The position numbers were made by a program, and so were the translations under genes. Below, piece after piece: positions 27 to 16,157 of a stretch of 21,665 nt of DNA. The first letter of the stretch is position 1. Every line of letters starts with the position of its first letter. The stretch lies in IMG/VR virus record IMGVR_UViG_2617270975_000008. The stretch is one strand, 5' to 3'. The DNA comes from a virus (Duplodnaviria > Heunggongvirae > Uroviricota > Caudoviricetes). The notes below the pieces were generated by a model. The model was given only the letters and a program-made list of their open reading frames with translations, made no database searches and had not been told where the DNA came from.

Positions 27-776
27 TCACTGATCTCCTTCGGTCAACGGAGATTGTATTTTCCGCATTGATTCTCCTTTAAGTTCGATCTTGATACTGC
101 CATGAACCAGTCGATCTAGGATGGCATCCGCATGTGTGGAGTCTCCGATCATTTTGTACCAGTTTTCCACCGGCAACTGGCTCACTACGATGATTGAGCC
201 TCGTTGGTACATCAGATCCACTATTTCCAGCAGGTCGCTACGCTGTTCTGATGAGAGAGGTTCCAGCCCCCAGTCATCCAGAAGCAGCAGATCGCTATTA
301 TTCAGCCTGGTCAAAAGTTTGCTGTATCTTCCATCAGCATGCCCCTGATAGCACTGTTCCATCAGCGCTTTAAGGCGATAATAGTAGACCTTGTATCCCT
401 GTCGGCAGGCATTATGACCAAGTGCACATGCCAGGAACGTTTTACCGCTGCCGGTGGCCCCGGTCAGTAAAATATTTTGTTTCAGGGTTAACCAGTTTCC
501 CTGACTGAGTGAACGGATGAGGGCCCTGTCCAGCCCTCTATTGTTACGATAATCCAGCTTTGATAACTCAGCATTAAGTCTGAACCGTGCATGTTTGATC
601 AGACGCTCTGCCTTCCTGTTTTCACGGCAGGTTAGTTCTTCTGCTGTCAGTAATGACAGGCGTTCTTCGAAGCCCAGCTCCTGGTATGTGCCCGGCTGAG
701 CAAGTTGCTTTTTAAGCGCATCACGGAAGCCGGTGAGTTTAAGTGCGGTCAGTTGTTCGTAAAGATGATTCATCAT
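27..776 (-). CDS. istB: IS21-family helper ATPase IstB
   Basis: 249 aa; Walker A GATGSGKTFLA and Walker B LLLLDDWG; overall IstB/DnaC-like AAA+ layout; immediately downstream of istA. Confidence 0.9.
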   Translation of the reverse strand: MMNHLYEQLTALKLTGFRDALKKQLAQPGTYQELGFEERLSLLTAEELTCRENRKAERLIKHARFRLNAELSKLDYRNNRGLDRALIRSLSQGNWLTLKQNILLTGATGSGKTFLACALGHNACRQGYKVYYYRLKALMEQCYQGHADGRYSKLLTRLNNSDLLLLDDWGLEPLSSEQRSDLLEIVDLMYQRGSIIVVSQLPVENWYKMIGDSTHADAILDRLVHGSIKIELKGESMRKIQSPLTEGDQ

Positions 777-787
777 TGGATCCCGTA

Positions 788-2329
788 TCAGTGGTAATAC
801 TCACTGCCGCGTACGTTTTCGTGTTCCATCGTGGATAACAGATCTGGTTTTGGATCCTGAACAGGTTGTTTATCCAGACCTTTTTCCAGGATCGATTTAA
901 TACCTGACAGACGCCATACCTTTGTTTTCAGAGCTCTTGCACATGCTGCATTAAGTCTGGCTTTACTGTATTTTTTATGAAGGTTCAGGAGTCCAAGGCA
1001 GAAGCGATAGCTTTGTTCCGGATGTGGACGAGAGTTCAGTATATGAAGCACATAACTATGAGTTTCACTGCCTATGTGCCCCGCCCATTCCAGAAGACGC
1101 TCTGGCGTCCAGGTGGCATGCTGTCGATGAGCTTCAGGCATGTGCTCGTTGCGGGTACTGTAGCCATAAGTACGCTTGCGCGGGTGCACAGCAACCTCCT
1201 GCCCCTGATTGAAGAGTCTTACCAGTTCTCCGGAGATCCATGCTTCCAGTTGCTGGCCTAACAGCGAACATGGAACCGAGTAGTAATGTTTGTCGATTTC
1301 CACGTGGTAATCGGCATGAACTCTGACTTTCTTCACCAGGGTGTAACTGTAACTGGCTTCAGGAAGAGGCTTCAGTGCGGGTTTATCAAGCTGGATGAAG
1401 AGTTCTGCACGTGAATAACCCAACTTCTGCATTATTTTGTTATTCAGTCTTTCCAGCAACTCCCGAATGCGCTGATTAAGCGATGCAAGGCTGTAGAAGA
1501 TCTCATGCCTGATTCGGGCCATGATCCAGCGTTCAACAACCTGAACGCCAACTTCAGCTTTGGCTTTATCTTTCGGTTTACGTGGCCGCGCAGGCAAAAC
1601 TGCGACATTATAATGCTCAAGCATCTGCTGGTAGGTAGGGTTAACGTCAGGATCATACTTACATGCCCTGGATGTGGCGCTTTTCAGATTGTCCGGAACA
1701 ACAAGTTCAGGAACGCCACCCAACCACTGGAAGCAGCGAACATGACTCATCACCCAGTCTTCAAGCTGCTGAGACCAGGTGGCCTCTGCCCATGTGTAAC
1801 TTGATGCCCCGAGAACAGCTACGATGACCTGAGCAGTTCTTATTTCTCCGGTCTCAGGGTCGGTAACGCCAACGGTAGGTCCACAGTAATCAACGAAAAG
1901 TTTTTCGCCAGCTTTATGTACCTGACGCATTGATGGTGAAGTGGTTTTGAGCCATTCACGGTACATCCGGCAGTAATGGTTATAGCTGTAAAAACCGCCT
2001 GGATTACGCTCACAGTATTCTTCCCAGAGTAGCTGCAGCGTCACGCATTTATTACGCAGTTCCCGGTGTACTGTAGCCCAGTCAGGCAGAGAGTGCTTCT
2101 TCATCTTAACCTGGGTCTGAAGGAACGCATGTTTTAGTTTTGTATCATCCCATCCTGTAGGTAAGGGCCACTGCTTTATGCCAAGTTGAGCCGCCCGATT
2201 AGCATATCTGGATACAACGGAAGGGGAGATTGCAAGACTACGACCAATTTGTCGATGGCTGAGTCCAACACCGTATTTAAGCCTAAGAATTTCTTTAAGT
2301 TTTCTCATAGAAATTGGAACTGTTGGCAT
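788..2329 (-). CDS. istA: IS21-family transposase IstA
   Basis: 513 aa; N-terminal HTH (LSHRQIGRSLAISPSVVSRY) followed by an rve-type integrase core; 11-nt gap to istB. Confidence 0.85.
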   Translation of the reverse strand: MPTVPISMRKLKEILRLKYGVGLSHRQIGRSLAISPSVVSRYANRAAQLGIKQWPLPTGWDDTKLKHAFLQTQVKMKKHSLPDWATVHRELRNKCVTLQLLWEEYCERNPGGFYSYNHYCRMYREWLKTTSPSMRQVHKAGEKLFVDYCGPTVGVTDPETGEIRTAQVIVAVLGASSYTWAEATWSQQLEDWVMSHVRCFQWLGGVPELVVPDNLKSATSRACKYDPDVNPTYQQMLEHYNVAVLPARPRKPKDKAKAEVGVQVVERWIMARIRHEIFYSLASLNQRIRELLERLNNKIMQKLGYSRAELFIQLDKPALKPLPEASYSYTLVKKVRVHADYHVEIDKHYYSVPCSLLGQQLEAWISGELVRLFNQGQEVAVHPRKRTYGYSTRNEHMPEAHRQHATWTPERLLEWAGHIGSETHSYVLHILNSRPHPEQSYRFCLGLLNLHKKYSKARLNAACARALKTKVWRLSGIKSILEKGLDKQPVQDPKPDLLSTMEHENVRGSEYYH

Positions 2330-2339
2330 AGGTATCCTT

Positions 2340-2507
2340 TACCGGAATGGCAAAAGATACAGATCAACACACCTGTGAAGTTCCAATAACATTGATGGAG
2401 ATCACTGAATAACAAAATGAGTCAAAAGTGATCTCCATCGATGTTATTCAGCGATCTGTTCAAATGTTATTACCCGATCTCGATGGAAGTTATTGAGTGA
2501 TCTCCTT
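2340..2507. repeat. IS21-type subterminal repeat cluster (multiple direct and inverted copies of GATCTCC / GTTATT motifs)
   Basis: Seen directly: ggagatcactgaataac (2398-2414), gtgatctcc (2431-2439), gatgttattcagcgatct, aatgttattacccgatct, gaagttattgagtgatctcc (2486-2503). Confidence 0.6.
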
Positions 2508-2960
2508 TCATGAAAATACGCAACCGTCCTTAATCCACCAGCGAATCGCCTCACACGCTCCCCTGCGGTCACCAGCATTCAGCCGCTTATAAAACGTCGA
2601 CGGGAAACACTTACCGGGGCCAATGTTATAGGGACAGAATGACGCTATACCCGCTTTCTGTGGTTCGGTCAGTGGAACTTTAATATTGCGCTCCACCCAT
2701 GCCAGCGCCTTATCCCGTTCAATGGCATTAACCTGGTCGCATTTTTCCTTCGACAGTTTCATGCCCGGAATAACAGGTTTACCATCCACCATTGTGGCAC
2801 CGCGGCAGATGGTCCAGATACCCGCACCATCACGGTATGCCGTTGTGTGGTTACCTTCTTTTTCATCCAGAAACTGGTCGAGAATATCAGGCGCAGGCGC
2901 ACCGATGGCAATCAACGCCAGAACGGCAGCCGACAGGCCATATTTGATTTTGGTGTTCAT
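2508..2960 (-). CDS. R: Phage endolysin R (lysozyme, SAR-type signal-anchor N-terminus); C-terminus replaced by IS-derived codons (CVFS-stop)
   Basis: 150 aa; N-terminus MNTKIKYGLSAAVLALIAIGA matches the hydrophobic SAR segment of Stx-phage/P21-type lysozymes as recalled; conserved lysozyme core; reading frame runs into the IS repeat region after WWIKDG. Confidence 0.85.
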   Translation of the reverse strand: MNTKIKYGLSAAVLALIAIGAPAPDILDQFLDEKEGNHTTAYRDGAGIWTICRGATMVDGKPVIPGMKLSKEKCDQVNAIERDKALAWVERNIKVPLTEPQKAGIASFCPYNIGPGKCFPSTFYKRLNAGDRRGACEAIRWWIKDGCVFS

Positions 2961-3088
2961 GGATATTTATCAGGATTTATCGGTTCCGAATCCCTGGATA
3001 TGTTAAATCTTCAGCCCGCCAGCGGTAGGACACTGGCGTTTTTCCTGATGGCTGAAATATATCTGACAATTTCAGTAGAGGATTAACC

Positions 3089-3403
3089 ATGCATAACGAT
3101 CAACATAATTATGATTTATGCCTGCAAGCCATAAATGAGCGGGTAAAATCAGAGTGCCTCTTACTCCTCCCACAAGAACACGATGCAGTAAAATCCATTC
3201 AGGCTGAGCCGTATGGACATCTCACACCTGTGACTCTCGGCATTATCGCCAGAGCATTAACACAGCCCATGCTTATGCGTATTAAGACCAATATAAATAA
3301 CTGGTTGAATGAAGAATTAAGCTACCTTGATTGTGAGTGGGACAATCATTACGCAAAAACACAAAAAGAACGCATCTTCAGTCGATTATCCAGCAACAGA
3401 TAA
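3089..3403 (+). CDS. Hypothetical protein (104 aa), antisense to the late operon, inside the S-R insertion
   Basis: Strong SD (GAGGA, 7 nt before ATG); lower GC than backbone; no family recognised. Confidence 0.55.
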   Translation: MHNDQHNYDLCLQAINERVKSECLLLLPQEHDAVKSIQAEPYGHLTPVTLGIIARALTQPMLMRIKTNINNWLNEELSYLDCEWDNHYAKTQKERIFSRLSSNR

Positions 3404-3412
3404 CGAGCCACC

Positions 3413-4219
3413 TTATATACGCCCTTTCAGATAAGTCATCCCCGGCTGCATCCAGTCAACAGGTGCTTTCTTAAAGGGCGTATTATCAAAATCACGCAGA
3501 AGAGCCTCCAGCACAACTGCATCATTGTCAGCACCACTGGCCATCATTTCAATCTCAGCTGCTACCTGCAGATATCCCATGCAACGACCAATGCGCTTCA
3601 TCAGCCCCTGCTTTTTATTGTTCTTCAGGTAATCAATGGCAAATTCAATGAGCGCCTCACTATGCTGGTGCGATGGCGGTGTTAATTTCCCATTTTCTGA
3701 GATGGTTATTTTCCCGCCATCTCCGTATACAACAAAGGATGGCCGGTTACACTCCCATTCCTGATCTTTATCAGGTGCAGACGCAATAAAATAACGTTTA
3801 TTTCCTTCCTCTCCGGCACTTTTAACCGTAATGGAGTACTCAGACTGCAGACAAGACGCCTCTTTTTCTGACCGCAGTGTTGACGGCGGCATCTTCAGAG
3901 AACCAGTAATTCTTCCCGGTAGCTTTCCTTTGTAGGTTATCAACACATCCTGCGCCTCTAAAATTATGGGGCGCTTTTCCGGCAACGGTTCGTTCCCTTC
4001 ACATAACCCGGCAGCAACATCCATGAAAAACTGCTTCGCCTGCTTTTTCGCCTCAGCTTCGTAAAACTCCAGCGTGGCACCTTCAGTACGGTCAAGACTA
4101 ATCGCCACATTTGGCAACAACAGTGACGGATACCCACCAATTTCCAGTACCACAGTAACAGTAATCTTATCCGGGTAATTATTTATCCCTTTAACAACCA
4201 GTTCGTATTTTTTCTTCAT
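3413..4219 (-). CDS. Hypothetical protein (268 aa) inserted between holin and endolysin; expressed in the late operon
   Basis: ATG 5 nt after the S stop with GGGGAGAG SD; no TM segment or signal peptide evident; no family recognised. Confidence 0.65.
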   Translation of the reverse strand: MKKKYELVVKGINNYPDKITVTVVLEIGGYPSLLLPNVAISLDRTEGATLEFYEAEAKKQAKQFFMDVAAGLCEGNEPLPEKRPIILEAQDVLITYKGKLPGRITGSLKMPPSTLRSEKEASCLQSEYSITVKSAGEEGNKRYFIASAPDKDQEWECNRPSFVVYGDGGKITISENGKLTPPSHQHSEALIEFAIDYLKNNKKQGLMKRIGRCMGYLQVAAEIEMMASGADNDAVVLEALLRDFDNTPFKKAPVDWMQPGMTYLKGRI

Positions 4220-4223
4220 CGCT

Positions 4224-4439
4224 TTACTCTCCCCGCGCCGCCTTACGCCGGTCCTCTCTGATTTTGAAATACAGGTTAGTCAGATATGTCAGCAGCCCAA
4301 ACAGCAGACTCCCCAGCACGCCTATTGCCGCCCACTGAGACGGGGAAACCCTGTCCAGCAACTGCAGGAACCAGTAGCCCGTTCCCACCGCTGACGTGGT
4401 GTATGACACACCTGTTGTGATTTTTTCCATCTGGTACAT
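4224..4439 (-). CDS. S: Phage holin S (class with dual-start MYQMEK motif)
   Basis: [71 protein letters not shown] matches Stx-phage holin as recalled; two hydrophobic segments and charged C-tail. The 97-aa track ORF is an upstream extension. Confidence 0.85.
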
Positions 4440-4473
4440 ACCCCGTCTCCCGTTATCCGGAAGCTGACAACAA

Positions 4474-4503
4474 TAAAAAAAGCCACCAGTTAAGTACTGA
4501 TGG
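4474..4503 (-). terminator. Intrinsic terminator between nanS-p and S (hairpin gccaucag/cugguggc followed by U-run on minus-strand RNA)
   Basis: Plus strand aaaaaaagccaccagttaagtactgatggc; 8-bp stem with one G-U pair, A-run on plus strand gives U-tract on minus transcript. Confidence 0.5.
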
Positions 4504-4589
4504 CTCTGATAACTCATGCAGGCATCTCAGACGACCCACTGACACTACCGGTGAGTTTAACGATACCTTCCATTTGACTGGCTCACTTT

Positions 4590-6458
4590 TTATGATGATG
4601 CCGGTGCATTTATCTCCAGCACCAGACTTTCTATCTCAACGCCATACGCTGCATTTTTGGTAATATCCGTCAGCGTCAGCGCATTCAGCCCCAGTGTCAG
4701 ACTGTCTTTTATGACCTGGAATGCCGGGCCAGCCACTCCATTCAGTTTCGGAGTAACCGTGGCACTGCCGGCGGTGAACACCAGCTCCAGCGTCTGCCAG
4801 TCGTTACTGTAATTCCCGAACTCGCCCAACTTTGTGTTTCCGGCTTTCTTGTGATGCATCAGATTCAGTTTGCCGTCTGTGGTCTGGGTGAAGAACGACA
4901 TCAGGAACGGGTTACCAGTCCCGGTCATCGCCACGACGTCAGGTAACGCTACATCGGTATACAGATAAATTCCCAGACCGAACTGGTTGTTGGTCAGTGC
5001 GCCTGACAGTCGAAACTTACAGCTCAGTCTGCCACCCCGTGTCAGCAGGGAGACTGCGTCATCCACCGGATGCATCAGGGACCAGGTTTTATTGCTCTGC
5101 TTGGTAACCTTAAACACACCATCTTCCAGCGCAACACTGCCGCCGGTGATGGTCCAGCCCTGCGCAGCAGCCTCTCCGGCTGTCGGCAGCAGGGAGATTG
5201 TGCGAACGGACGTATCTGCAGACGGACCCGATGGCGTGTCGCCGCCGGGCGAGGGTTTGATTTCCGGTGCCTTACCACTGATGAAGGCTGAGGTGCGCCC
5301 GGCTACGTTCAGAATAGCAGTTGCCATACGATCGGGAATAATGCCACGACGCGCCCATGAGCTGAAATGCGTCGGGCGATTTGATGATACCCAGTTTTTG
5401 TTCGTTCGGGATGCCGAACCGTAATAACCAGACCCGGCAATATCAGGATCTTCTGACGGGTTGTTTGTCGGTGTATTAACTCCGCTACCATCGGTCATAA
5501 AGGGAACAAAATAAATCTGCTGGGATTCTTTACCTTTATATGCACCATATACCACTTCATATTGCGTACCGTGTTCTTGTTTCCACGCGTATGTCGTGTC
5601 GCCACAAATCCAGGGGACTGATGCCGGACTTCCACCGTGACACTGCGCTGCCAGCCCGGCAAGGTCAGCACGGAACTGCTGTACCATTGCAAGAAATGCT
5701 GCTGGCTGCTGGGCGTAACTGGCATTCGTCATATCGAATTCCCCCTGCATCCAGCATATCGCCAGCAAAACGTTTTTCGGGTTTTTCTGCAATGCTGCCT
5801 TCGTGCGGAAAAGCAGATCCTGATATAACGGCTTACCCACTCCCCAGCGAGCCGAATCCTGACTGGCCCCCGTGGACTCGCTGAATGTCCCCTCCGTGCC
5901 CTGGGTGAATGCCGAACCACCACGACAGCATGGTACCAGCAGGATCCCCGCATTATTAGGGATATACGGAAGCAGTTTTTTGGCAATATGTAAGCCCTGG
6001 CCGACACAGCCGTACTGCCCTTTGCTCAGGTCAGCCCGGGGATGGTTAATCGTACTCATATCCTGAACATCATGCAGACAATGGTCAGCAGGAATGATGT
6101 CGTTAAATACGCATACTTCACCACCGGGAGTCACTGTGTTACGACGGGCCAGTTGCTTAATGCGCGGATGGGGCGCATCGTATGAATCCGGAAGCGGAAG
6201 CCCTTCACCGTAAGCCATGGCATTGGACTGCCCGGCCAGTACGATGACGTAGTACCACTCCGGCTCAGTTGCACCACTGACGACCACATCACCTTCTGCT
6301 GCAATCGCCTGCATCAGGGTATAAGGGGTTATGGCCACCGGACTACCAAACGGCTGCCAGCCCTCTTTCAGTTTATGTGTCAGCTTTTCCGCAAGATCTG
6401 ACGGCGACGCCGCCCTGACAACATCATAGTGTTTAAATGCCATGGTTCTTTCCACCAT
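4590..6458 (-). CDS. nanS-p: NanS-p-like sialate O-acetylesterase (N-terminal DUF1737-like region, SASA/SGNH esterase domain, C-terminal carbohydrate-binding-like region)
   Basis: 622 aa; GQSN catalytic-serine motif (VIVLAGQSNAMAYG); position immediately upstream of holin S as in Stx phages. Confidence 0.7.
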   Translation of the reverse strand: MVERTMAFKHYDVVRAASPSDLAEKLTHKLKEGWQPFGSPVAITPYTLMQAIAAEGDVVVSGATEPEWYYVIVLAGQSNAMAYGEGLPLPDSYDAPHPRIKQLARRNTVTPGGEVCVFNDIIPADHCLHDVQDMSTINHPRADLSKGQYGCVGQGLHIAKKLLPYIPNNAGILLVPCCRGGSAFTQGTEGTFSESTGASQDSARWGVGKPLYQDLLFRTKAALQKNPKNVLLAICWMQGEFDMTNASYAQQPAAFLAMVQQFRADLAGLAAQCHGGSPASVPWICGDTTYAWKQEHGTQYEVVYGAYKGKESQQIYFVPFMTDGSGVNTPTNNPSEDPDIAGSGYYGSASRTNKNWVSSNRPTHFSSWARRGIIPDRMATAILNVAGRTSAFISGKAPEIKPSPGGDTPSGPSADTSVRTISLLPTAGEAAAQGWTITGGSVALEDGVFKVTKQSNKTWSLMHPVDDAVSLLTRGGRLSCKFRLSGALTNNQFGLGIYLYTDVALPDVVAMTGTGNPFLMSFFTQTTDGKLNLMHHKKAGNTKLGEFGNYSNDWQTLELVFTAGSATVTPKLNGVAGPAFQVIKDSLTLGLNALTLTDITKNAAYGVEIESLVLEINAPASS

Positions 6459-6636
6459 CTGAAAAATGATTCTTTAAAATACCTGACATGTAATACAGAA
6501 AAAACACAAAACCATACCTTAATTAAAAACCTCATCATCAAGCAGATATGCATGGATAAACTACAAGACGAGATATAAACCACCCTGCATTTAAATAAAC
6601 AATAAACAACATCAGAAAAATAATTCTGCTCTATGG

Positions 6637-6665
6637 TTTACAATCAAAAATATCATTTATACTTT
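6637..6665 (+). promoter_or_regulatory. Candidate sigma-70 promoter for ORF 6704-7039 (TTTACA, 17-nt spacer, TACTTT)
   Basis: Seen in sequence; motif match only. Confidence 0.35.
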
Positions 6666-6703
6666 TCAGAACATCACCAGCAAGGCATAAACAAGGAAAC
6701 TAA

Positions 6704-7039
6704 ATGAAGTGGATTGTGATTGATACAGTTATCCAGCCATCATGCGGAATATCTTTTTCAGTCATATGGAGTAAAATAAAATTAATAATCTGGTATCAAT
6801 CGGATGCTTTCTTACCTCCTGAAAGTATATTTACACTGACTCACACAGGCATCATGCTCAATAACAAAGTGCTGCCTGTAACCATTTACAACGTAGTACC
6901 ATTCAATAAAACATTCTGGAATTTAATCAAAAACAGCCAGGAATGCCCTACAAATACAGATAACGTATTGAATGAATGCTTTAATAACCGTTGCACTCTG
7001 CAAATATGTCCTTATGGGCTAAAACAACAAAGTCCATAA
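6704..7039 (+). CDS. Hypothetical Cys-containing protein (111 aa) in AT-rich cargo at the stx-equivalent locus
   Basis: AAGGAA SD 5-6 nt before ATG; long ORF in AT-rich DNA where stops are frequent; antisense to late operon. Confidence 0.5.
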
Positions 7040-7074
7040 GGAGTTTACTCACATCTGACAAAATCAATATAAAC

Positions 7075-7096
7075 AGCCCCTCCGGAGAGGGGCTGG
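7075..7096 (-). terminator. Stem-loop (cccctc cgga gagggg core) with U-rich tail on minus-strand RNA; candidate terminator
   Basis: Plus strand cagcccctccggagaggggctg preceded by aaaatcaatataaa, giving a T-rich tail after the hairpin on the minus strand. Confidence 0.4.
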
Positions 7097-7486
7097 AGAG
7101 TGGCGCTATGTGCCATTGCATGGTGCCGGGTGCCTCCCGGTGAATTCAGTACCAGCACCTGAATCCGCGATTATCCCATATACCTACTCGCTGATTGCCC
7201 CTCCGCACAGGGGGATTCACCATGCCAGTTTCTTTTAACAAACTCCCCGCAAACCAGACAACAGTCAACCGCCTGAATTGTGAAGTATTTAAAAATTTCT
7301 CCCGCTAACTGATACCCGGCTAACAGTCTGGCGTTTTCTTTTTCAGCAACGGGAAAGCAGCAACCACCACACCCGCCACCAGCACACCGTCAGCCAGCAC
7401 TGACATTATCCGGCTGCTGCAATGCCATTCACAAAAACAGTAAGCAATCACTTTTTACCGTAACCGGTGATAATCCAGATATGTAT

Positions 7487-7843
7487 CTACCCCAGATGAG
7501 TAATCCGAAGTTCATCCATACCACAGGTCCTGGCTATTCTGTTGTACTCCTGAACAAGAGCAAATAATTCTGAATTAGCCACCATGAACTCATCGCAAAC
7601 CCTCTGTATAGCATCACTATTCAGAATAATAACGTCTCTTCCCGAAAGACGATCAGGAGTACAGAACAAAACTGTCAAACGGCTGAAGGCCTTTGCTCGT
7701 TCTGCATTGACTATATCAATACGCTGCCTAAGGATGAAACACCCCGACGCCTCATCAATATTCACTCTACCCACACCATATGAATGATAAATATTTAATG
7801 CTGAAAAAACCATTAGACCGTATAACAAACACTCAATCAACAC
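7487..7843 (-). CDS. Hypothetical protein (118 aa from TTG; first ATG at residue 11) in cargo region
   Basis: ORF in AT-rich DNA, late-operon orientation; weak translation signals. Confidence 0.3.
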   Translation of the reverse strand: MLIECLLYGLMVFSALNIYHSYGVGRVNIDEASGCFILRQRIDIVNAERAKAFSRLTVLFCTPDRLSGRDVIILNSDAIQRVCDEFMVANSELFALVQEYNRIARTCGMDELRITHLG

Positions 7844-7950
7844 TTAACAGAACTTTTATTTTTGACAAACATATAATATTTTCAACAATATCCTGAGCCA
7901 GGTATATTTCAGTATAAGGCTCTGCCGAAAGGAATCTGGAAGAATGAATA

Positions 7951-8027
7951 TGGCGCGCTGTACTGGATTCGAACCAGTGACCGATTGCTTAGAAGGCAAT
8001 TGCTCTGTCCGGCTGAGCTAACAACGC
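7951..8027 (-). tRNA. argO: tRNA-Arg (anticodon UCU)
   Basis: Manual cloverleaf: acceptor GCGTTGT/ACAGCGC, anticodon stem ATTGC/GCAAT, loop CTTCTAA, T-loop TTCGAAT, CCA end. Confidence 0.85.
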
Positions 8028-8040
8028 ATGATGCAGATAA

Positions 8041-8117
8041 TGGACCGCCATCGGGGACTTGAACCCCGCGCAGCCAGCTTCGAAGGCTGGCGCTCTATCC
8101 CGATGAGCTAATGGCGG
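8041..8117 (-). tRNA. argN: tRNA-Arg (anticodon UCG)
   Basis: Manual cloverleaf: acceptor CCGCCAT/ATGGCGG, anticodon stem CCAGC/GCTGG, loop CTTCGAA, T-stem CGGGG/CCCCG, CCA end. Confidence 0.85.
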
Positions 8118-8124
8118 TATGTGA

Positions 8125-8200
8125 TGGTGGCCCTTGCTGGATTTGAACCAGCGACCTGGCGATTATGAGTCGCTCGCTCTCACCACTGAGCTAAAGGGCC
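8125..8200 (-). tRNA. ileZ: tRNA with CAU anticodon (Ile2 lysidine-type as in Stx-phage ileZ, or elongator Met)
   Basis: Manual cloverleaf: acceptor GGCCCTT/AAGGGCC, loop CTCATAA, T-stem GCTGG/CCAGC, CCA end; gene order Ile-Arg-Arg matches recalled Stx-phage ileZ-argN-argO. Confidence 0.8.
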
Positions 8201-9873: not shown

Positions 9874-10695
9874 CTATCGCGTTACCCTCTTTAACTGCCG
9901 CTCCGCCCATGCCTCTTCAATGTCAAACCGAACCACCAACGTATCGTAAAAGCGTTTCACTGATTTTTTCCACGTATCAAGCGTGATAGCACTCGTCACT
10001 TTGCATATGGCATTAAATGCCTCCGTTGATGGCAGCCTTTCACAGCCACGACCACCACAACGCTGGCAATCTCTGATAACAGGCATACCACGTTTTACCG
10101 ACTCTTCACGATGAATGGCGACACCACGCCCACGGCAATCCTTACAGGCGGTGGAAACCTCACCCTTTCCGCCACACTCCGGACAGGCAACTTTTACCAC
10201 CTCCCTGACTTTTTTCCATTCTTCCCAGTAAGACGGATACACGCCTTTTGTGCACTTTGCCCACACTGGTGGCTTACCATCCGGATACTGGATCTTGTTT
10301 GTAAAAACCTCGCTTTCAATAAATTTTTTTCCGTGACAGCAGGGGCACTGTTTTTTGCTCGCCGCGCTACGGGCATAATCTTCAAACGCATACGAAGCCA
10401 TAATGCGCATCACTACCGGTTTTATTTCTGCCGGAAGTTTTCTCAACGCCGCCACACGATCGCACCGACTGAGTGCATAATCTGCCAGTAATTCTGTTGC
10501 CCGCGCCCTGTCATTCATACTGATGCCCATTTTCCCCAGGAACGCAGAAAACCCCATCTCAGCCCGATTCTGTGTCATGCCCTGCGCGGCCATCACATCA
10601 GTGATACTCAGCGCATCTTTTGACGTTGAGGCCGATGCATCGGTCAGGCCAGGGGATTTTGGGGAGTAGTATTTCGGTAAATCTTCCAGTTTCAT
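9874..10695 (-). CDS. Candidate late antiterminator Q (QuuQ-like by position) carrying four DnaJ-type CxxCxGxG zinc-finger repeats
   Basis: 273 aa; CPCCHGKK, CPECGGKG, CKDCRGRG, CQRCGGRG repeats; sits between rusA and the pR'/tR' signals; ATGA overlap with rusA. Family assignment is inferred, not recognised by sequence. Confidence 0.5.
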   Translation of the reverse strand: MKLEDLPKYYSPKSPGLTDASASTSKDALSITDVMAAQGMTQNRAEMGFSAFLGKMGISMNDRARATELLADYALSRCDRVAALRKLPAEIKPVVMRIMASYAFEDYARSAASKKQCPCCHGKKFIESEVFTNKIQYPDGKPPVWAKCTKGVYPSYWEEWKKVREVVKVACPECGGKGEVSTACKDCRGRGVAIHREESVKRGMPVIRDCQRCGGRGCERLPSTEAFNAICKVTSAITLDTWKKSVKRFYDTLVVRFDIEEAWAERQLKRVTR

Positions 10696-14280: not shown

Positions 14281-16157
14281 AGTTAACATTACAAGATATA
14301 AGTAATGGACGCACTCCCAATTAGTCTATTTAAATCGCCACGAGTTTAACTGACAACCCATGATCAATTATGAATTGCAACTATTTCTGTAGTCACTTTT
14401 GTGGGGACAGTCCACAAAACTGCCAACTTCCGCTTCTTGCTCTTAGCGGACATTAGCATAGGCTATTTACCATAACGCCTCATTACGCGCACCGCCCAGA
14501 CTGACTCAGCGCGTTTCTGGCATATCCCCAGTAAAACAAGTAACAAACCACCCGAAAATGAACACCAGAAACGCGACTTAAGAATCTACCCTATGAATGG
14601 ATATGCACTCAACCGAATCGATCTTGGTTTCAATCTTTTTTATCGGGATCAGGCTTCTTTTTAGGTAACTTCGGGGGCTTAACTTGCTGATGACTTTGCG
14701 TTCGGCGCGTAAGCCAGGGATGGTCAGCTTTAGGTTTAACATAGTATTTTGAGCGTAAATCAATACGGGCATTATCCACTCGTTCATGGACACTCTTTTC
14801 ATCATCCAGTGGTATAGGCTCCGGGCCATCAACATACTTTTCCCAGCCCAGCGCTTTCCCGTCATACAGAACGTTAATTTCACCGTCAAAGTTCTCGCAT
14901 ACAGTAACAACCGAATGCCTAAGTCGATATCCCCGGCTCTCACTGCGTACCTGAAACGCACTGCTTTTGTACTGGAAAGTGAGATTTTTAGACAGAACGC
15001 GCTTCGCCTGTAGGCTGAAGATATAACCCAGTTCCTCTTCAGAATGGTGCACATCAAGATGAGCATTATCAGTAGTACGAGGCGACGTAGCGAACCGGTT
15101 GTTATAGGCTTCAATAAAGGTCGGCAACCATGCATTTGCTGTTTCAATATCACTGATATTCTGAAGCCGCATTTCTTTGACCAGCCTGTCCTGTAGTGTC
15201 TGATTGGCGCGCTCTACCCGCCCTTTTGCCTGCGGGCTGTTGGCATGGATTGGCTCGATGCCCAGTGTCTTTATCGCACGAGTGAACTGGGTCAGCTCAC
15301 CTTCCCGCTCTGGGTTATTTACCCTGAATATACTGTGTCTATCAGAGTAGAGAGCGAGCGGTACGCCATGATCATTAAGGTAACCCCGGAGGGTTTCCAT
15401 GTAAGCCCGGGTTGTTTCAGCAGGCACAAAACGCAACGCCATCAACGCACTGGTGGCATCATCAATGAAAACGATCAGTGTACATCTGGGGCCTCGATTT
15501 TCAAACCAGTCATGAGGTGAGCCATCAATCTGGATCAGTTCACCGTAAGATGGTCGTCGCATGCGGCGTTGATATATACGGGCAATTTTACGGCGGCGTT
15601 CACGCCATAACCCCTCTTCTATCATCCACTTTCTGAGAGTTTCAACGGATAAAGATAAACCGTGTATCTCGCGCAATTTTTCGCACGCAAACGTAGGTCC
15701 AAAATCAGCGTAACGGCCTTTGAGGAGTGAAATTACTGTTGCTCTGAATTCAGTAGAAAAGGAATTATTAGGACGCTTTCCACGTCGGTGGGAAACCAGA
15801 CCAGAAGGCCCTTCATTTCTATACCGTTGCACCAGACGTTTAACCTGCCGAATAGAAATGCCAATGCGTGCCGCAGCTTGTTCCTGAGTAATATGTCGAT
15901 TAATTGACTCCTGAATAATCTGAAGTCGGTGGAGTTCCTTATGACTCATCGTAACAGTCTCTTTGATCATGAAAAATCCCCCAGAGAATTGTCTGGGGAC
16001 ATTTTAGAATGGTTCAAAGGGGACATTACAGCTTGGTGTTAACACATAGCCTGCTTCTCCTTGCCTTTCGGCACGTAAGAGGCTAACCTACGTGTGTAGA
16101 GCATAGATATGGCCTCAGATTAATGTTAAGCGTCTTGCCGGACGCGTAATGTTAACT
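14281..16157 (-). mobile_element. Candidate insertion sequence carrying a single DDE (rve-type) transposase; 12-bp inverted repeats AGTTAACATTAC; family uncertain (IS481-like architecture)
   Basis: Exact 12-bp inverted match at 14281-14292 and 16146-16157 flanking the transposase; extra TAATGTTAA and TGGGGACA subterminal copies; no target-site duplication found. Confidence 0.45.
14630..15970 (-). CDS. DDE transposase (N-terminal HTH, rve integrase core; IS481-like)
   Basis: 446 aa; HTH ITQEQAAARIGISIRQVKRL; DDE triad candidates in IQIDGSPHDWF, LYSDRHSIF, KGRVERANQTLQ; basic C-tail. Confidence 0.8.
   Translation of the reverse strand: MIKETVTMSHKELHRLQIIQESINRHITQEQAAARIGISIRQVKRLVQRYRNEGPSGLVSHRRGKRPNNSFSTEFRATVISLLKGRYADFGPTFACEKLREIHGLSLSVETLRKWMIEEGLWRERRRKIARIYQRRMRRPSYGELIQIDGSPHDWFENRGPRCTLIVFIDDATSALMALRFVPAETTRAYMETLRGYLNDHGVPLALYSDRHSIFRVNNPEREGELTQFTRAIKTLGIEPIHANSPQAKGRVERANQTLQDRLVKEMRLQNISDIETANAWLPTFIEAYNNRFATSPRTTDNAHLDVHHSEEELGYIFSLQAKRVLSKNLTFQYKSSAFQVRSESRGYRLRHSVVTVCENFDGEINVLYDGKALGWEKYVDGPEPIPLDDEKSVHERVDNARIDLRSKYYVKPKADHPWLTRRTQSHQQVKPPKLPKKKPDPDKKD

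Follow-up and report, generated by a model that had tools for sequence, protein, structure and literature searches.

What lies between the holin and the endolysin gene of a lambdoid prophage when the two are more than a kilobase apart, and how does it come to be there? The question is raised by the virus record IMGVR_UViG_2617270975_000008 (Caudoviricetes), whose whole stretch of 21,665 nucleotides (nt) is here called the window; its list of open reading frames (ORFs) and a Pfam scan show the content to be the minus-strand late region of a lambdoid prophage. An earlier note on this DNA, written from the sequence alone, took adjacency of the holin gene S and the endolysin gene R as the norm, and proposed that two convergent genes, neither of a recognisable family, had been inserted between them as an accessory, defence or lysis-timing module. 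Our analysis shows that the S–R interval is instead normal accessory content of P21-type lysis cassettes and not a foreign two-gene insertion. The larger gene is a near-full-length ydfR-family late gene with a DUF1327 N-terminal domain (N-domain), a variable middle and an unannotated C-terminal domain (CTD), while the smaller one, here called SM, is dispensable, optional cargo in a variable slot directly 3' of the long ydfR gene.

A long YdfR in the lysis cassette

The elements of the interval and its two borders are as follows (aa, amino acids).

4224–4439, minus strand: holin S, P21-type class II pinholin of 71 aa (PF04971, E 2.3e-32)
3413–4219, minus strand: long YdfR-family late gene, 268 aa (ORF list, sequence)
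3986–4219, minus strand: N-terminal DUF1327 domain, aa 1–78, predicted strand-strand-strand-helix
3764–3985, minus strand: linker and variable middle module, aa 79–152, AlphaFold2 predicted local distance difference test score (pLDDT) below 35, predicted disordered
3416–3763, minus strand: conserved CTD, aa 153–268, about 115 aa, defined by alignments and outside every Pfam family
3089–3403, plus strand: SM, 104 aa, phrog_1853 (also ‘unknown function’ in PHROGs)
3077–3082, plus strand: Shine-Dalgarno sequence AGAGGA of SM, 6 nt before its ATG
3011–3043, plus strand: TCAGCC box, 8-bp hairpin (3017–3024 with 3031–3038) and T-run (3039–3043), about 45 nt upstream of SM
2983–3392: 410-bp unit of SM plus leader, missing exactly in some otherwise collinear loci
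2520–2960, minus strand: endolysin R (PF00959), with a hydrophobic N-terminus of the signal-arrest-release (SAR) type

The layout given in the earlier note was largely borne out. The S stop and the R start are separated by 1263 nt (2961–4223), with all elements where they had been placed, and the convergent 104-aa ORF does have a strong Shine-Dalgarno sequence. The 268-aa ORF is likewise present with its ribosome-binding site, a GGGGAGAG stretch preceding the ATG, although it starts 4 nt and not 5 nt past the S stop. The guanine-plus-cytosine (GC) content is indeed lower than that of the backbone (0.448 across the interval and 0.41 within the small ORF, compared with 0.52–0.55 for the flanking genes, namely 0.546 for S and 0.524 for R). 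Given a PF04971 holin and the SAR-like N-terminus of R (Kyte-Doolittle 1.88 at residues 9–27), the flanking genes form a pinholin/SAR-endolysin cassette.

The statement that neither protein matches a family did not hold for the larger one, which matches DUF1327/YdfR (PF07041) over residues 1–100 with 147.2 bits against a gathering cut-off of 25. The protein falls in phrog_1085 (PHROGs, ‘unknown function’) and in a 584-member cluster at 99% identity that is named ‘YdfR family protein’, and it is predicted to be soluble (maximum 19-residue Kyte-Doolittle window 1.31, no membrane segment). Its homologues make up a highly mosaic family of 160–333 aa, assembled from a DUF1327 N-domain (of which there are two alleles), a linker, optional coiled-coil or other middle modules and the CTD. 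Middle modules alternate among the aligned relatives, the window allele lacking the coiled coil of relatives of 287–333 aa, and the CTD also occurs without DUF1327, in proteins of 185 and 213 aa with a short coiled-coil N-terminus. Profile searches of PDB gave a best E-value of 1.7 with the N-domain and a best full-sequence E-value of 0.068 with the CTD; a CTD match to the ‘pathogenicity island protein’ 8tch (E 0.095) covered a 25-residue stretch and was rejected as too short.

Automated annotation presents the gene differently. The RefSeq Prokaryotic Genome Annotation Pipeline (PGAP) calls a 100% identical gene a truncated ‘YdfR family protein’ pseudogene comprising only the first 336 nt and leaves the CTD without a feature; such calls lie at 6924–7259 in locus L004 and at 3325–3660 in both L223 and L224, corresponding to 3884–4219 in the window. 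The RefSeq feature is likewise ‘none’ under many of the 970 places in E. coli genomes where CTD DNA was found.

How usual the gene is at this position was assessed in 67 evaluable IMG/VR loci with a PF04971-type holin. Of these, 58 have a ydfR-family gene between S and R, with a dozen or more length classes represented, and the Qin prophage of K-12 has one there too, so that S–R adjacency is not the norm here. In the other 9 loci S and R are 4 nt apart and no ydfR-family gene is present. Among 5426 complete E. coli genomes, DUF1327 DNA was present in 3148 (58%) and CTD DNA in 787.

The CTD is rare in sequence space, an exhaustive phmmer search returning only 17 representatives in 1.84 billion proteins. 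Its distant relatives (30–45% identity) are Salmonella ‘hypothetical proteins’ in which a DUF1327-like but divergent N-domain is followed by a coiled-coil middle and the CTD, an architecture that is kept at 26–45% identity. Residues H186, G211, R212, L217, Q218, A220, A221, E222, P248, K250, W256, P259, G260, Y263 and L264 (numbering of the 268-aa protein) are invariant from E. coli to Salmonella, and both reading frames of the pair are intact in Salmonella at 40–48% identity. Nine distinct contexts all place the gene in a lambdoid late region, behind Q and frequently behind a HicAB module, and directly before a holin; in Salmonella, 170–500 nt separate it from that holin, to which it is not coupled, whereas the E. 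coli gene lies between S and R. The holins adjoining the homologues belong to three unrelated families (2_1, 2_3 and 3_1; PF04971, PF16080 and PF05106). As a side observation, the HicA/HicB toxin-antitoxin module regularly precedes the Salmonella homologue of long ydfR between Q and the lysis genes (L173, 2385–3022; L175, 2637–3270; also L216, L219, L221 and L227).

The three-part architecture is thus ancestral, and the gene is anchored beside the lysis genes of the Q-dependent late operon in two genera; we hold this account of the architecture and ancestry of long YdfR with high confidence. Because the large gene is an ancestral anchor and only SM is optional cargo, a single recent insertion of both genes is not supported, although other parts of the cassette idea stand: the interval is accessory, the pair behaves as one block, and it recurs in Salmonella.

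The best-known member of the family differs from this long form. K-12 Qin shows the same arrangement, essQ-ydfR-rrrQ (class II holin, then lysozyme) with ydfR on the strand of the lysis genes, but its YdfR has 103 aa in a single domain, in contrast to the 268 aa, middle module, CTD and convergent 104-aa neighbour of the window. The 103-aa K-12 YdfR and many forms of 104–176 aa look like truncated derivatives of the long form. A closer counterpart is the Stx2-converting phage 86 (NC_008464), whose gp05 (‘YdfR family protein’) and gp06 (‘hypothetical protein’) are the same pair in the same order and orientation, with 97.9% DNA identity from S through the pair to R. In phage 86, stx2 is present and R is intact, whereas the window has no stx in that region and its R is broken by an element of the IS21 insertion sequence (IS) family.

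The small convergent gene and its leader

The SM stop lies 9 nt from that of the 268-aa ORF. Hydropathy indicates a soluble protein (maximum 19-residue value 1.16), and the predicted structure is a confident five-helix bundle (pLDDT 87.8, predicted template modelling score 0.81). A profile search of PDB with SM gave a best E-value of 0.095, Foldseek of the model against BFVD gave no match below E = 0.5, and a profile scan of one genome per species found nothing. The ratio of nonsynonymous to synonymous substitution (dN/dS) is 0.24–0.49 for SM against copies diverged to 61–78% and 0.24–0.42 for the 3' portion of the large ORF, which encodes the C-terminal part, against copies diverged to 78–89%; judged by these ratios, by the frames kept in Salmonella and by the confident SM fold, both ORFs are real genes under purifying selection and not chance ORFs.

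The search for the same pair at other sites, as the earlier note had advised, located it in E. coli prophages, in phage 86 and in Salmonella prophages. SM itself forms 13 sequence clusters, all from E. coli, and is found in four phage records; its DNA was detected in 95 of the 5426 complete E. coli genomes (132 places), and identical copies of the pair (100%) occur in E. coli 55989, O104:H4 and others. In Salmonella enterica, 4 of the 7 distinct long-ydfR homologues examined are followed by a convergent 105-aa ORF with 44% identity to SM (E 7e-33), and GAGG is kept in the copies from both species.

Wherever SM was seen, it accompanied the CTD. In all 38 IMG/VR loci with SM (42–100% identity), it faces a CTD gene in convergent orientation at a distance of 10–35 nt, even where DUF1327 is missing, and with the four distinct Salmonella contexts the count is 42 of 42. 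Within E. coli, the divergence of SM follows that of the CTD (r = 0.82) and not that of the N-domain (r = 0.07), while CTD and N-domain, though parts of one gene, are uncorrelated (r = 0.02). Since the N-domain follows neither of the others, the recombination block is the CTD plus SM.

When the S–R junction was aligned with related phages, as had also been suggested, SM emerged as a 410-bp insertion/deletion (indel) and the 4-nt gaps of the nine loci described above were recovered. At the junction in loci L033–L039, SM is represented by its final 11 nt (TTATCTGTTGC, which encode ..SNR and the stop), joined to the 22 nt that precede the R ATG, and this retained end at the R leader marks a clean 410-bp deletion. 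Comparison of the R leader itself (window 2961–3010) with L053 and L059 reveals at least three versions that differ by short-homology indels around a repeated ATATCCA, which points to repeated illegitimate recombination at the junction.

In 26 of the 67 loci the ydfR-family gene is joined by a convergent ORF, 79 aa or longer, just before R, and five unrelated kinds were distinguished. Other ydfR 3' ends are each accompanied by an unrelated putative gene of their own, of 90 aa, 79–91 aa, 110/86 aa (‘DUF1823-like’) or 233 aa, the last overlapping an alternative C-terminal domain by about 250 nt. S–R gaps in related loci with other convergent ORFs measure 692 nt (L112), 868 nt (L104), 959 nt (L094), 1000 nt (L107) and 1307 nt (L170).

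Between E. coli and Salmonella, the leader element upstream of SM is better conserved than the coding sequence, and it is deleted along with SM in loci without that gene. In 12 distinct sequences, 97.9% of the cells of the hairpin are paired; one pair is compensatory (C-G to U-A), and all five one-sided changes give G.U pairs on the SM-sense strand only. A shuffle test, in which 51 of 500 shuffles reached the observed score, lends modest support, the folding energy is unremarkable (z = -1.39), and Rfam had no match in window positions 2300–4700. As the G.U changes fit only the SM-sense strand, the pattern of substitutions suggests that the leader is an RNA element of the SM transcript, which could be a 5' stem-loop or an attenuator.

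What the pair might do

Functional data on YdfR were found in the literature only in PMC13232886, DUF1327 being mentioned elsewhere just in passing. In that study, residues 1–72 of K-12 YdfR bind RNase E(1–597) in two-hybrid and pull-down assays, and RNA co-purifies. The N-domain encoded in the window is homologous to the RNase E-interacting region (44% identity to K-12 YdfR over 78 aa), and by this homology the N-domain of long YdfR may be an RNA- and RNase E-binding module. The protein would be made late along with S and R and would be cytoplasmic, where it would most likely tune the stability or processing of late (lysis) transcripts, direct contact with the holin being improbable. Transcription of SM would run counter to the late operon, in the direction leading away from the lysis genes, so that SM would be made mainly with late transcription off, in the lysogen or early in infection, and would most likely bind or modulate the CTD. 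An ancestral long YdfR with a CTD-linked SM is the best explanation that we can offer as a whole, and it is offered tentatively, with slightly less than even confidence. A functional link between SM and the CTD is given the same guarded credence, while the RNase E/RNA mechanism, extrapolated from one homologous domain, is rather doubtful.

Phage effectors that target RNase E include T7 gp0.7, T4 Srd and phiKZ Dip. Long YdfR would resemble them in its proposed target and in the proposed adjustment of mRNA decay, but it shares neither sequence nor fold with them, and the link is made through the interaction data for the short K-12 homologue.

Several observations weigh against this explanation. 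Around 50 of 80 IMG/VR loci with the CTD, and about 86% of the CTD copies in E. coli genomes (132 places with SM, or about 14%, against 970), lack SM while the CTD gene is intact. A single Salmonella CTD allele is found next to SM in some cases, carries a C-terminal extension beside an unrelated 86-aa convergent ORF in others, or stands alone, and more distant homologues have other cargo in the slot. Given such absences and swapped partners, the association of SM with the CTD could be plain linkage over a spacer of 9–35 nt. For SM, neither a sigma-70 consensus promoter (scan of 2961–3088) nor a downstream terminator was found. The AlphaFold2 model of the whole 268-aa protein is poor (pLDDT 51), and for this reason the resemblance of the N-domain to a double-stranded RNA-binding domain is weak. 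The roles of the long form, the CTD and SM are themselves inferred, and overproduction of YdfR barely altered the transcriptome (PMC13232886).

Much of this would be accounted for if SM were an independent moron in a permissive slot, acting on host physiology or phage exclusion and linked to the CTD only physically, a reading that is possible and the nearest competitor, although we consider it less probable than a functional link. SM shows the presence or absence between the same neighbours and the low GC content (0.41, the lowest of the interval, against 0.52–0.55 for S and R) that are expected of a moron, it is cleanly deleted in many loci with the CTD intact, and at least five unrelated convergent ORFs occupy the slot in E. 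coli (90, 79–91, 110/86, 233 and 104 aa), as do, in Salmonella and relatives, the 86-aa ORF, a DUF1883 protein or a 189-aa gene; the single CTD allele with different partners points the same way. Since SM points away from the lysis genes, its own transcription could not activate R or the holin in lysogens. Lambda bor, known from the lambda map and the moron concept, is the natural comparator: bor-like morons are also optional units among conserved late genes, of lower GC content, antisense to the late operon and beside the lysis cassette. SM, however, has no promoter or terminator recognisable in a consensus scan, is not a lipoprotein or membrane protein, and is tied to the CTD gene in every one of its 42 contexts, an adjacency that has outlasted divergence to 44% identity and a shift in position relative to the holin. 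That long YdfR is instead a lysis-timing regulator, coupled to S as a cytoplasmic antiholin cofactor in the manner of T4 RIII or P1 LydB and counteracted by SM, appears improbable. The start 4 nt past the S stop, the constant position beside lysis genes in two genera and a genetic screen tying ydfR to envelope integrity (cited in PMC13232886) would suit such a role. Against it, the homologues adjoin three unrelated holin families, and a holin-specific antiholin role is therefore disfavoured; the Salmonella gene is uncoupled, 170–500 nt before its holin, long YdfR has no membrane segment, and 9 of 67 phages with the same holin have no ydfR-family gene at all.

The readings that treat the pair as a weapon or as debris fare worse. 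In pore-forming colicin operons, a toxin gene is followed by a convergent immunity gene and a lysis gene, and the immunity protein is an integral membrane protein. A phage-borne unit of this kind, in which a modular, polymorphic effector (long YdfR) is made on induction and freed at lysis and SM protects uninduced sibling lysogens, would fit the order of long ydfR, convergent SM and then R (in E. coli) or holin (in Salmonella), and the inheritance of the CTD and SM as a block, a C-terminal module and small gene being swapped together in colicin operons as well. It is nevertheless very unlikely because SM is often absent (it is missing from most copies) and is soluble, without membrane helices, because the large protein has no toxin, import or colicin domain, and because dN/dS shows purifying selection, unlike the diversifying selection of the colicin comparison. 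A toxin-antitoxin or abortive-infection pair, with the CTD protein as toxin and SM as antitoxin, is suggested by two adjoining small genes inherited as a block, in a region that in Salmonella accepts such cargo, HicAB modules being nearby. Yet the genes converge, their stops being 9 nt apart, and form no operon, the CTD gene has stayed intact and under purifying selection in those copies (roughly 86%) that lack SM, and neither protein has a match in PADLOC or NCBIfam, the sole Pfam match being DUF1327; such a pair is hardly credible, and the idea of a defence module in the earlier note found no defence or toxin-antitoxin homology to sustain it in these three resources. It is just as hard to believe that the 268-aa ORF is a decaying pseudogene, a truncated ydfR fused to junk, as PGAP implies. 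The RefSeq tag on a 100% identical locus does read ‘YdfR family protein, incomplete, missing C-terminus’, truncated forms are numerous in this highly mosaic family, and the prophage itself is defective with an IS element in R; however, the build of N-domain, middle and CTD is kept as far as Salmonella at 26–45% identity, the CTD has a dN/dS of 0.24–0.42, the 99% cluster contains 584 sequences, and the complete genome record of the Stx2-converting phage 86 includes the gene.

Prophage setting and wider meaning

The remaining features of the window, in the order of the late region, are listed here.

9874–10695, minus strand: antiterminator Q, first in late-region order
between Q and the esterase: RusA, a DUF968 protein and a DNA methylase, then three tRNAs (cluster 7951–8200)
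4590–6458: nanS-p-like SASA esterase, upstream of holin S, GC content 0.539
27–2519, minus strand: IS21-family element in R (istA 788–2329, istB 27–776; junction 2519/2520)

The element next to R was assigned to the IS21 family on the basis of Pfam matches to rve and the Mu-transposase C-terminal domain and of IstB_IS21 at 227 bits. It cuts R after codon 147 of 177, and BLAST homology to intact references ends at 2520. With R interrupted in this way, the prophage copy in the window would be unable to lyse normally and is probably lysis-defective. A second transposase-like ORF (helix-turn-helix plus rve_3) lies at 14630–15970.

The identical RefSeq loci label S ‘class II holin’, and an in-frame ATG at 4517, upstream of the S start, would give a 97-aa alternative. 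A terminator-like structure on the late strand, consisting of a 12-pair hairpin followed by a T-run (4479–4507, minus strand), lies between the esterase and the S start and falls within this 97-aa version of S. No stx gene is present in the window between the tRNA cluster and the esterase. Positions 6500–7950 form a low-GC island (0.32–0.35) with a plus-strand ORF of 111 aa (6704–7039) that has no Pfam match; in the related locus L006, a gene for an IraM anti-adapter, alike in size and orientation, occupies this spot.

The locus reveals neither a new defence system nor a new principle. The pair is a common accessory of its phage family, already contained in a sequenced and annotated Stx phage; it is a common and annotated component of the lysis cassette, as in the finding that the earlier note had named as refuting its proposal, though not one with a known function. 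What is new here is the domain architecture of long YdfR with a CTD outside Pfam, its conserved placement beside lysis genes across genera, the CTD-SM block and the SM leader hairpin. The comparison also brings to light a systematic mis-annotation of long ydfR in RefSeq. For the family as a whole, it means that DUF1327/YdfR is usually located inside the lysis cassettes of lambdoid prophages, including those of Stx phages and of the O104:H4 and 55989 lineages, and that the short type member from K-12 is probably what remains of a longer late protein with three modules. The interaction of K-12 YdfR with RNase E and RNA, joined to the findings on the CTD and SM, yields a testable hypothesis for a very common prophage gene.

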